Positions 14,216 through 18,069 of a DNA stretch of 64,000 nt are shown piece after piece; position 1 is the first letter of the stretch; every line of letters starts with the position of its first letter. The position numbers and the translations under genes were made by a program. Under the pieces are notes generated by a model that saw nothing but the letters and a program-made list of their open reading frames with translations, was not told the origin of the DNA and did no database searches. The DNA lies in assembly GCF_055900595.2 (NCBI RefSeq), contig NZ_CM148325.1; one strand, 5' to 3'.

Positions 14216-15640
14216 TTACTGCATTAACAAGTAGATGGTGCTGTCGCCGCGCTGAATGTTCAGTGCCAGCACAGACGGTTTGCTGTCGAGAACTTTACGC
14301 AGTTCAGCGATGTTTTTCACTGCCTGCTGGTTCGCACCAATAATCACATCACCTTTCTTCAGGCCGATCTGCGCAGCTGGAGTGCCCGTTTTCACGTTGT
14401 TCACCACCACGCCCTGATCTTTGCCTTTGTTGCTCATCTCAGCGCCTTCAATGCCGTTGAAGATGGTGCTGGAATCAACCTGATTCTGGCTGCTCTGCTG
14501 CAGTTCCAGGTTCACGTTAACCTGCTTCCCGTCGCGCAGTAAGCCCAGGGTCAGTTTGCTGCCTACCGGCATAGTGCCCACCTGAGCACGCAGTGCGGCA
14601 AAGCTGCTGATTGGCTTACCGTTCAGTGAGGTGATCACATCACCCGCTTTAATGCCCGCTTTCGCGGCGGAAGAATTCGGCAGAACCTGGCTTACGAAAG
14701 CACCGCGCTGGGCGTCAACTTTCATCGCTTTCGCCAGATCGGAGTTCAGCTCAGTCCCCATAATACCCAGCTCACCGCGTTTCACCTGGCCGTATTCCAC
14801 CATCTGCGAGGTCAGGTTTTTCACCATGTTACTCGGGATAGCAAAACCGATACCGATGTTGCCGCCGTCCGGTGCGAGGATCGCGGTGTTGATACCGATC
14901 AGTTCGCCGTTCAGGTTAACCAGCGCACCACCGGAGTTACCACGGTTGATCGCAGCATCGGTCTGGATGAAGTTTTCATAGTTTTCGGCATTCAGACCGC
15001 TACGCCCCAGCGCAGAGACAATCCCGGAAGTTACTGTCTCGCCCAGGCCGAACGGGTTACCAATTGCTACGGTGTAATCACCCACGCGCAGTGCATCAGA
15101 ATCCGCCATCTTAATTGCGGTCAGGTTTTTCGGATTCTGGATCTGGATCAGCGCGATATCAGAGCGCGGATCTTTGCCAACCATCTTCGCGTCGAACTTA
15201 CGACCATCGCTCAGCTGGACTTTAATCACCGTCGCGTTATCAACAACGTGGTTGTTGGTGACGACATAGCCTTTATCGGCATCAATGATGACGCCGGAAC
15301 CCAGCGCCATGAATTTTTGTTGCTGGCCGCCGCCATTACCGCCCTGGCCCCCCTGGCAGAACGGAGAGCTCTGGAACGGAGAACCTTCCTGGCAGAACGG
15401 AGAATCATCACCGAAGAACTGCTGGAAATTACGCGGCATACGCGGCGTATTAACGGTTGTGCTACCTTCTACGTTAATGCTGACCACTGAAGGCATCACC
15501 TTTTCGAGCATTGGTGCAAGGCTTGGTATCTGCTGGGCTGTCGTTGCTGAAGAAGTCTCAGCCGCCGTTGCAGAGAGCGGAGATAACGCCAAACCTAAAC
15601 TCAGAGCCAGTGCACTCAGTGCTAATGTGGTTTTTTTCAT
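14216..15640 (-). CDS. degP: periplasmic serine endoprotease/chaperone DegP (HtrA)
   Basis: 474-aa ORF, signal peptide MKKTTLALSALALSLGLALSPLSATA, trypsin-like domain and two PDZ domains. Confidence 0.92.
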   Translation of the reverse strand: MKKTTLALSALALSLGLALSPLSATAAETSSATTAQQIPSLAPMLEKVMPSVVSINVEGSTTVNTPRMPRNFQQFFGDDSPFCQEGSPFQSSPFCQGGQGGNGGGQQQKFMALGSGVIIDADKGYVVTNNHVVDNATVIKVQLSDGRKFDAKMVGKDPRSDIALIQIQNPKNLTAIKMADSDALRVGDYTVAIGNPFGLGETVTSGIVSALGRSGLNAENYENFIQTDAAINRGNSGGALVNLNGELIGINTAILAPDGGNIGIGFAIPSNMVKNLTSQMVEYGQVKRGELGIMGTELNSDLAKAMKVDAQRGAFVSQVLPNSSAAKAGIKAGDVITSLNGKPISSFAALRAQVGTMPVGSKLTLGLLRDGKQVNVNLELQQSSQNQVDSSTIFNGIEGAEMSNKGKDQGVVVNNVKTGTPAAQIGLKKGDVIIGANQQAVKNIAELRKVLDSKPSVLALNIQRGDSTIYLLMQ

Positions 15641-15685
15641 GTATTTCAGTCTCGATTAACAGATAACGCAAAATTGCTGTGTTCT

Positions 15686-15712
15686 TCAGATTCGTTTTAT
15701 AGCGCGAAGTTC
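15686..15712 (-). promoter_or_regulatory. sigma-E (RpoE) dependent promoter of degP
   Basis: On the minus strand GGAACTT(-35) ...16 nt... TCTGA(-10) located about 45 bp upstream of the degP start. Confidence 0.7.
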
Positions 15713-15769
15713 CGAACTAAAGTTTCTGCAAAAGGTAAAAATTTATTGTTCGTCTTTACAAAAGCCTGG

Positions 15770-17287
15770 TTATTGTTCTACGGCCATCAGACGTCGGTAT
15801 TCATCCCAGGCATAGAGGTCGGTCATACCGCTGATATAATCCTGCAGCAGGCGGCAACGGTAATAATATTCCCATAGCGGAAACTCAGGAGAATCTGACG
15901 GTAATTTACTGACAGCCTCGACATAGGCCAGCCGATGGCGCGTCGAGAGTTTGTGGAATAAGCGCGATTCAATAGGGAAACGTTTCACCCGTTCTTTTTC
16001 TACCAGTTCAGTAAAGTCTGATAACGACAGGCTTAATAAAGGGCGATAAATCTCTAATAATCCGCTAATGACCCGATAGCCCTGCAATTCAAGCTGCTCG
16101 ACATCTGGATGGCTAAACACATGTTTTACAGCGACATTTTTATATAGCTTTAGAAGATCGCTGCATTCGCTGGCATCTTCCAATAATGCATGATTAAACG
16201 TTCCGGCGAAAATCGCAGGCAGATTATCAATAAATCGTTGTGCCGCGTAGGGTACCAGTTTATTTAGGGTGTTTACCCGTAAATACATAAAAAACTGATC
16301 TTCCGTACTGCGGCTTAAACTATTTGAGCGTGATTTTTCCCAGGCATTTTCAACCACCAGCGAAAAGAGCGAACCTTTCTCATGCTGGCCCCACGCTTCG
16401 TGCAAATGATGATAAAGCTGCTCAACGCTGAATATTCTTTTCTCTACCGCATCTTCAAGATCTGCCACACAATAGGAGATGTCGTCGGCAGCTTCCATAA
16501 TCCACGTTAATGGAAAACGACTGTAAAGCGCCAAATTAAGTTCTTTACGCAACCGGGCAATATAAGCTTCTTCAGAAAGATAATAACCCGGCTTTTTCAT
16601 TAAATAGTGATGTGTCTCAGGCGTTTCGCCACGCCACCACGCCGGACGGGTATATTTTAAAATACCGCCAACCTGTGCCCAGGTGAGATTCATCCGCATC
16701 AATGTATGCACCAGACGAATACCTTGTGCATTCCCCTCAAAATGGCATAAGTCCTGACGAATTTTGCGCCGCAGTTCGTTAAGCGGTTCTTCCCCTTCCC
16801 GTAAACGTAATGCCACCACGCAGCAGCGATCGTCAGTCAGAGGCTGGCTTTCGGCATCAGCCGGAAACAAACGCTGGCGAAACCAGTCATTTATCGCCGC
16901 TTCACCAAAATGGCCAAACGGCGGATTGCCGATATCGTGCATCAGGCATGACATCTCAACAATACTTTCAAAGGGGCCGGTCAGTTCATCCAGACCATAA
17001 TCTTCCAGTAATTTAAGCTCTTTCAGACGGCTTAAAATTTCTTTGGCGATGTAGCGCCCCACCTGCTGGACTTCCATTGAATGGGTTAGACGCGTGCGCA
17101 CGGCGGCATTTCGCTCCAGCGGAAAAACCTGGGTCTTTTGTTGCAGACGACGAATTGCCGGAGAGTTGATAATACGTCCGCGATCGCTCTCAAAGATTCG
17201 CAGGATCTCATGTTCGGTTTTAACGCCCTGTGGTGAACGGTAACGACGATGCCAGTTTATTTTTTTTCGGAAATCAATCTGTGCCAT
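15770..17287 (-). CDS. dgt: deoxyguanosinetriphosphate triphosphohydrolase
   Basis: 505-aa ORF, HD-domain motifs ([14 protein letters not shown]); upstream of degP. Confidence 0.9.
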
Positions 17288-17370
17288 GTCCTCTCCCGCG
17301 TGAGAAATACGCTTCCCCGTAAGCGCATGGTAAACTATGCCTTCAAATCGGGCTTATCGCGAGTAAATCT

Positions 17371-18069
17371 ATGAAAATCGGCATCATTGGTGCAATGGAA
17401 GAAGAAGTTACGCTGCTGCGTGACAAAATCGAAAACCGCCAAACTATCAGTCTGGGCGGTTGCGAAATCTATACCGGCCAACTGAATGGAACCGAAGTTG
17501 TGCTTCTGAAATCGGGCATCGGTAAAGTCGCTGCGGCACTGGGTGCAACTCTGCTGTTGGAACACTGCAAGCCAGATGTGATTATTAACACCGGTTCTGC
17601 CGGTGGCCTGGCACCAACGCTGAAAGTGGGCGATATCGTTGTCTCGGACGAAGCACGTTATCACGACGCGGATGTCACGGCATTTGGTTATGAATACGGT
17701 CAGTTACCAGGCTGCCCGGCAGGCTTCAAAGCTGACGATAAACTGATCGCTGCCGCTGAGGCCTGCATTGCCGAACTGAATCTTAACGCTGTACGTGGCC
17801 TGATTGTCAGCGGCGACGCTTTCATCAACGGTTCTGTTGGCCTGGCGAAAATCCGCCACAACTTCCCGCAGGCCATTGCTGTAGAGATGGAAGCGACGGC
17901 AATCGCTCATGTCTGCCACAATTTTAACGTCCCGTTTGTTGTCGTACGCGCCATCTCCGACGTGGCCGATCAACAGTCTCATCTTAGCTTCGATGAGTTC
18001 CTGGCTGTTGCTGCTAAACAGTCCAGTCTGATGGTTGAGTCACTGGTGCAGAAACTGGCACATGGCTAA
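17371..18069 (+). CDS. mtn: 5'-methylthioadenosine/S-adenosylhomocysteine nucleosidase
   Basis: 232-aa [59 protein letters not shown]. Confidence 0.9.

Follow-up and report, generated by a model that had tools for sequence, protein, structure and literature searches.

DegP, the main protease-chaperone of the periplasm, is routinely used to report envelope stress, and its control region serves as a reference case in which two stress pathways and temperature meet at one gene. The gap between dgt and degP in the DNA analyzed here (hereafter the window, a stretch of 64,000 nucleotides from contig NZ_CM148325.1 of assembly GCF_055900595.2) raises the question of which of these inputs it carries and in what state. 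A sequence-only reading of the window had assigned to this gap a sigma-E promoter and a possible CpxR box, had judged the degP control region to be intact, and had omitted the RNA thermometer that lies in the same interval as well as a second CpxR box and a weak putative promoter just beyond it. The control layers described below, comprising a sigma-E promoter, an upstream CpxR-associated element, an RNA thermometer in the leader and a distal input from within dgt, are very probably those of the known E. coli degP system. The additions made here, namely the thermometer, the non-tandem CpxR block, the distal box with its weak start and two single-base differences from Salmonella, refine that system.

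The identity of the locus was established from the flanking genes. Both the Dgt and the DegP product match their families far above the NCBI equivalog cut-offs (Table 1), degP is annotated as such in E. coli genomes, and the gene order dgt, degP is also that of the K-12 MG1655 record. A 529-nt stretch spanning the gap was found in 5,424 of 5,426 complete E. coli genomes, where the flanking genes are annotated dgt and degP. Compared with K-12 MG1655, the 169 nt from 15621 to 15789 are identical but for two adjacent spacer bases, 15705-15704, which are GC here versus AG in K-12. The 71-nt core promoter is present exactly in its window version in 4,020 of the 5,424 genomes (~74%) and in its K-12 version in 1,384. 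In other genera GCG predominates, reaching 83% at both polymorphic positions, and because of this predominance outside E. coli the spacer allele of the window looks ancestral from its sequence distribution. The near-universal presence of the 529-nt stretch, the identity to K-12 at all but two bases and the possession of the majority allele bear out the judgement that the control region is intact: this is the known, well-studied E. coli degP control region in its commonest allele, and nothing unusual is expected of the strain. Three of the 5,424 records with the region are labelled plasmids, not chromosomes.

Table 1. Features of the dgt-degP region, in window coordinates; positions relative to +1 refer to the main start.
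Feature	Position	Strand	Remarks
degP (htrA) CDS, 474 aa	14216..15640	-	NCBIfam NF008189, serine endoprotease DegP, 934 bits vs cut-off 720
degP leader, HtrA fourU RNA thermometer	15635..15680	-	Rfam RF02700, cmscan 77 bits
dgt-degP intergenic region, E. coli	15641-15769	-	129 bp, from the stop of the 505-aa ORF to the ATG of the 474-aa ORF
Main start, +1 A	15680	-	40-nt leader; K-12 180,844
sigma-E -10 TCTGA (-10 to -6)	15686..15690	-	T, C and final A match consensus TCAAA (3/5)
Spacer, 16 nt	15691..15706	-	Contains the GC/AG polymorphism (15705-15704) and TAAAAC (15694-15699)
sigma-E -35 GGAACTT (-33 to -27)	15707..15713	-	7/7 vs published consensus
Conserved upstream block TTGTAAAGAcgaaCAATAAATTTTTAC (-81 to -55)	15735..15761	-	GTAAA 15755-15759, CAATA 15744-15748, TTTAC 15735-15739
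A-tract then T-tract AAATTTTT (-64 to -57)	15737..15744	-	85-100% conserved; candidate UP-element-like alpha-CTD contact
CpxR site degP1 GTAAAGACGAACAAT	15745..15759	-	Tabulated as a known site
dgt CDS, 505 aa, dGTPase Dgt	15770..17287	-	NF003429, 892 bits
Weak upstream promoter in dgt (putative)	15855..15868	-	-10-like TATTAT 15863-15868, start 15855, 215-nt leader
Distal CpxR box degP2 GTAAATTACCGTCAG, in dgt CDS	15895..15909	-	Listed as a known site in the PMC9600279 table

The sigma-E promoter motif, GGAACTT and TCTGA separated by 16 nt (GGAACTTCGCGCTATAAAACGAATCTGA, 15686-15713 on the minus strand), occurs once in the 64 kb and in none of 100 dinucleotide-preserving shuffles. Rhodius et al. 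give the sigma-E consensus as GGAACTT and TCAAA, with the T, C and last A of the -10 element being the most conserved, and describe a strongly preferred 16-nt spacer, a discriminator of 5 or 6 nt and initiation at a purine, with 26 or 27 nt between -35 and +1. Applied to the degP elements, this geometry would put +1 on the A at 15680, which lies 5 nt past TCTGA and 26 nt past GGAACTT. Two independent start maps of K-12 agree on this base. In Kim et al. (2012), degP transcription begins at 180,844 and has a 40-nt leader, the printed -50 to +1 sequence ending at that same A; Cappable-seq gives 180,844 as well, with a relative score of 41.6. With the exact motif in place and neither map locating the start elsewhere, the promoter call of the sequence-only reading is supported. 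The K-12 promoter degPp has the same locus, -35 element, spacing, -10 element and mapped start, and differs in carrying AG where the window has GC at -25 and -24.

In order to score this site, a sigma-E matrix was built from 16 other regulon promoters, with the genes taken from a published table, their K-12 regions extracted by coordinate and degP left out. The degP site scored 12.8 bits. No other site within the 300 nt preceding degP did better, and across the window it ranked fourth; its score lies below the range of the training sites (13.2-20.6 bits). About two sites of equal or better score were found per shuffled 64 kb, whereas about 0.002 are expected in the 129-nt gap on the degP strand, and the score is therefore informative only when combined with position. 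The low value is mainly due to the A that precedes TC in the -10 element, a position occupied by G (GTC) in 12 of the 16 training sites. The window allele (12.8 bits) and the K-12 allele (14.4 bits) differ by an amount that falls inside the noise of the matrix, and no functional difference between the GC and AG spacers is predicted.

Conservation of the region was assessed on degP loci from 80 Enterobacteriaceae species, aligned from -175 to +12 and comprising 78 distinct sequences. Within the -35 element GAACT is 100% identical, compared with 92% for the G before it and 83% for the T after it; within the -10 element the T, C and T are each 99% identical and the final A 100%; and the A at +1 is 100% identical. 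Upstream, identity is again 100% at TGTAAAG (-80 to -74), CAATA (-68 to -64) and TTTAC (-59 to -55), and 62 of the 80 loci contained a match to a relaxed form of the whole -81 to -55 block. By comparison, third codon positions at the 3' end of dgt, which carries the upstream control elements of degP, are often only ~0.3-0.6 conserved. The sigma-E step is thus established by sequence, by the mapped starts of K-12 and by conservation; mechanistically, RNA polymerase with sigma-E (RpoE) would read GGAACTT and TCTGA 16 nt apart and start at the A at 15680. The gene stands at the top of the sigma-E regulon, rising 56-fold on rpoE overexpression. Rhodius et al. (2012) found degP to be an active basal promoter and an outlier of their in vivo model of sigma-E promoter strength, a status that would be expected if an extra factor acted at the promoter.

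The upstream stretch that had been pointed out for its GTAAA as a possible CpxR box is TTTGTAAAGACGAACAATAAATTTTTACC, at 15734-15762 on the minus strand. It contains GTAAAGACGAACAAT, which appears as degP1 among the known CpxR sites tabulated in a 2022 study (PMC9600279), with De Wulf 2002 given as the source. Using a CpxR matrix derived from the other 39 sites of that table, the degP sites being left out (training median 13.7 bits), degP1 scored 6.15 bits, ranking 191 of 127,972 window positions, and its median score across 81 orthologous sequences was 6.8 bits. Relative to the tandem consensus GTAAA-N5-GTAAA it has a perfect first pentamer and three mismatches, the second pentamer (ACAAT) agreeing at 2 of 5 positions, and it is not among the 73 matches with at most two mismatches found in the window (49 expected). 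A tandem reading on the reverse strand reached 0.45 bits and was rejected. The motif score alone is too low for degP1 to be called; its functional standing rests on perfect conservation and published genetics, not on that score. The proposal of a possible CpxR box is supported, the site being tabulated and sitting in a conserved block, and the weak score and the three mismatches justify the caution with which it was worded. In view of the elements it passed over, the sequence-only reading is incomplete but not mistaken.

The conserved unit exceeds the tabulated 15-mer. It takes the form GTAAAGA-n4-CAATAAATTTTTAC and includes a second perfect GTAAA that is inverted and 15 bp away; the arrangement GTAAA-N15-TTTAC has a single occurrence in the window, and 7 of 100 shuffles contained it. 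On sequence grounds, the block TTGTAAAGA...CAATA...TTTTAC reads better as two inverted GTAAA pentamers flanking an A/T tract. With the tandem CpxR box of De Wulf 2002 (PMC9600279) degP1 shares the perfect first GTAAA and a location upstream of a Cpx-dependent gene; unlike that box, the degP unit spans 25-27 bp, has its second GTAAA inverted and holds an invariant CAATA at its center. According to Rhodius et al. (2012), the best distal UP subsites of sigma-E promoters are recognizable by an A-tract that gives way to a T-tract, with alpha-CTD positions near -53 and -63, and AAATTTTT may accordingly provide a UP-like contact for alpha-CTD.

Published genetics tie degP expression to the Cpx pathway. 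The gene is up 26.6-fold in cpxA24 and 32-fold with NlpE overproduction, and its log2 change in cpxR knockouts is -2.2 and -2.5. A CpxR ChIP-exo study placed degP outside its direct targets, which numbered only 12 genes, and overexpression of cpxR alone did not induce degP, a result attributed by its authors to sigma-E dependence. From these genetics and the published site table we infer both CpxR as the block-binding protein and its mode of activation: phospho-CpxR would most likely bind the -81 to -55 block and raise the output of the sigma-E promoter as a class-I-like upstream activator, and the A/T tract may help to hold the alpha subunit of RNA polymerase.

A second tabulated CpxR box, degP2, lies within dgt and is the stronger of the two sites, scoring 12.14 bits (window rank 10). 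It spans -229 to -215 of the main start and -54 to -40 of a minor start that Cappable-seq records at K-12 180,669, equivalent to window position 15855, with a score of 1.8. This start is 215 nt before the degP ATG, and 7 nt upstream of it is TATTAT, which we read as its putative -10 element; in dgt these bases are two Tyr codons (TAT TAT), the third positions of which are 88% and 95% conserved. The location of degP2 relative to this start would be a plausible one for an activator, and the pair may give a minor, sigma-E-independent Cpx input. The box itself coincides with the part of the Dgt C-terminus that is conserved least, and it reaches at least 12 bits in only 7 of 81 sequences, five of them of Escherichia type (the window, K-12 and three other Escherichia) and two from Citrobacter. 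Within the 215-nt leader, the dgt codons GAT TAT ATC AGC (15831-15842, minus strand) form another patch of very strong synonymous-site conservation at the 3' end of dgt, with third positions that are up to 100% conserved.

Two other assignments of the Cpx response were weighed against CpxR acting through the proximal block. The block could be mainly a UP-like alpha element or the site of another protein, with the Cpx effect being indirect or passing via the distal box. This would fit the poor CpxR score of the proximal site on either strand (190 window positions score higher), the resemblance of AAATTTTT to the A-then-T tracts typical of strong distal UP subsites, the position of degP outside the ChIP-exo direct targets, and the lowering of degP expression in a baeR knockout as well (log2 -1.8). 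Minor-groove contact with an A/T tract, however, leaves unexplained the invariant G -79, G -74, C -68 and C -55 and the GTAAAGA at -79, while degP1 is tabulated among the known CpxR sites with a binding study as its source, and expression depends strongly on both cpxR and cpxA; we regard this assignment as unlikely. The other possibility is that in E. coli Cpx control is exerted mainly through degP2, driving a separate sigma-70 promoter at 15855 in place of aiding the sigma-E promoter. The good match of degP2, its placement upstream of the Cappable-seq start, the conservation of synonymous positions in TATTAT and a leader length equal to that of Salmonella htrAp1 are all compatible with it, and NlpE still induces degP 6.4-fold without cpxR, so that the inputs are separable. 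Against it, the upstream start is ~23 times weaker than the main one in the sampled condition and is absent from the list of Kim et al. (2012), degP2 is restricted to few sequences whereas the proximal block is invariant, and the published comment on CpxR overexpression ties the lack of induction to sigma-E dependence. Control mainly through the distal box appears quite unlikely, and activation of the sigma-E promoter from the proximal block remains the preferred reading.

The spacer of the sigma-E promoter invites a further comparison with related genera. At 15694-15699 (minus strand) E. coli has TAAAAC; the equivalent bases in Salmonella and Klebsiella form the sigma-70 -10 hexamer TAAAAT. 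Among the aligned sequences, 42% have C at 15694 and ~56% have T. In Klebsiella, Kim et al. (2012) mapped an extra start at the G of TCTG(A), 7 nt after TAAAAT. For htrA of Salmonella Typhimurium, the summary of Lewis 2009 given in PMC5602114 names three promoters, htrAp1, p2 and p3; the htrAp1 leader measures 215 nt, and a constitutive leader of 47 nt is 7 nt longer than the sigma-E leader (PMC5602114). E. coli shares with this arrangement the 40-nt sigma-E leader and also possesses the start with the 215-nt leader, there very weak, but has no detectable 47-nt leader. Both the 47-nt leader of Salmonella and the Klebsiella start fit a TAAAAT -10 element embedded in the sigma-E spacer. That such a sigma-70 promoter (with its -10 hexamer spanning -19 to -14 and initiation at the G of TCTGA) also contributes to degP in this strain would agree with these observations and with the 82-100% conservation of TATAAA in the spacer. 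It is nevertheless very improbable: the E. coli TAAAAC lacks the final T of the hexamer, no start 7 nt upstream of 180,844 appears in either E. coli dataset (Kim et al. 2012 and Cappable-seq), and a consensus scan returned no sigma-70-like site on the degP strand.

The transcript that begins at 15680 carries a further layer of control. Its leader belongs to the HtrA fourU thermometer family, matching the full RF02700 model (1-46) from exactly the mapped +1 and scoring 77 bits, where the gathering score is 52 (E = 2.6e-17). In the RF02700 consensus structure UUUU (U8-U11, 15670-15673) pairs with the Shine-Dalgarno GAGA (G28-A31, 15650-15653), C13 (15668) forms a bulge, and the upper stem has 4 bp and a loop of 5 nt. 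The gathering score was reached in 8 of 20 related loci and genera. The Salmonella enterica htrA thermometer (RF02700; Klinkert 2012; Choi 2017), which scores 78.4 bits versus 77 for E. coli, shares the gene, the 40-nt leader from the sigma-E start, the UUUU:GAGA pairing, the bulged C, the upper stem and the 5-nt loop. It differs at transcript position 32 (15649), which is U in Salmonella and in 65% of sequences, and C in E. coli, where the A7-U32 pair becomes A.C and leaves the lower stem (pairs 5-34, 6-33 and 7-32) incomplete.

Among 51 distinct sequences, pair 7-32 is non-standard in 17, and 75% of the cells of the consensus structure are paired versus 26-57% with slid partners; no measure of covariation in the hairpin exceeded shuffles in this set. 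Support for the structure consequently comes from experimental work on Salmonella and from the conservation of the sequence. In Salmonella the htrA fourU hairpin was confirmed by SHAPE and melts cooperatively at ~36 C, or 14 C higher once the bulged C is removed, and translation rises with temperature. The predicted hairpin energy at 37 C is -3.0 kcal/mol for E. coli versus -5.8 for Salmonella (~2.8 lost), with the E. coli fold undergoing a register shift (CAG:CUG), and the predicted pairing of the Shine-Dalgarno sequence in a nearest-neighbour model is ~0.35 and flat with temperature in E. coli versus 0.92 in Salmonella. By analogy with Salmonella, we infer a temperature response in which the 40-nt leader would fold into a short fourU hairpin over the Shine-Dalgarno sequence and translation would rise with temperature; in the literature surveyed, no experimental test of the E. 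coli degP thermometer was found. The weak, flat pairing predicted for E. coli and the lack of covariation beyond shuffles count against this response. An initial classification of the leader as unstructured, based on a folding energy no better than that of shuffles (z = +1.1), was overturned by the Rfam match; RNA thermometers are expected to be of low stability. The ViennaRNA energy of the Rfam structure on the E. coli leader counts the A.C as a pair and is not meaningful, and folds that included 12 untranscribed upstream bases gave misleading structures and were dropped.

Combining these elements, a more divided arrangement can be put forward tentatively, at a probability that we consider low. 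In it, Cpx control of E. coli degP would be split between a non-tandem proximal block (two GTAAA pentamers in inverted orientation, 15 bp from each other and with CAATA between them, to which two CpxR dimers might bind or which a further factor might share) and degP2, which would act on a conserved sigma-70 promoter of its own (TATTAT, start at 15855), and the leader hairpin, weakened by the C at 15649, would largely lack temperature control of the Salmonella type. The two single-base differences, at 15694 (no sigma-70 hexamer) and 15649 (weaker stem), could explain a stricter dependence of degP on sigma-E in E. coli versus Salmonella.

The alignment also revealed two recurrent variants of the promoter region. 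Most Enterobacter and Lelliottia loci have GGAACTA for GGAACTT at -35, with the remaining promoter conserved (L014, L018, L019, L021, L029, L032-L034, L039, L043, L048, L049 and L075). In many genera, including Klebsiella, Kluyvera, Pseudocitrobacter, Trabulsiella and Atlantibacter, a 7-nt insertion, mostly TAGTCAC, separates the -10 element from the conserved ACACAGCAA (L047, L054, L064-L066, L068, L069, L071, L072, L076, L077, L079 and others). Klebsiella has a second mapped start 8 nt after TCTGA.

Other CpxR-like sites occur in the neighborhood of the locus. The best match to the CpxR matrix in the window is GTAAATCTATGAAAA (17363-17377, plus strand, 16.35 bits), which overlaps the mtn start codon and, relative to the start mapped for dgt (K-12 179,198, window 17326), occupies -51 to -37. 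The 2022 study counts dgt and mtn among the CpxR-dependent genes. A terminator scan found no terminator-like site from dgt to degP, and read-through from dgt into degP is for that reason conceivable. Within the degP coding sequence, both K-12 maps record a start at ~14752 on the minus strand (181,771/181,772), ~690 nt before cdaR and assigned to cdaR by Kim et al., and a CpxR-like 15-mer, GTAACATGGTGAAAA (14818-14832, 13.5 bits), lies 66-80 nt upstream of it.
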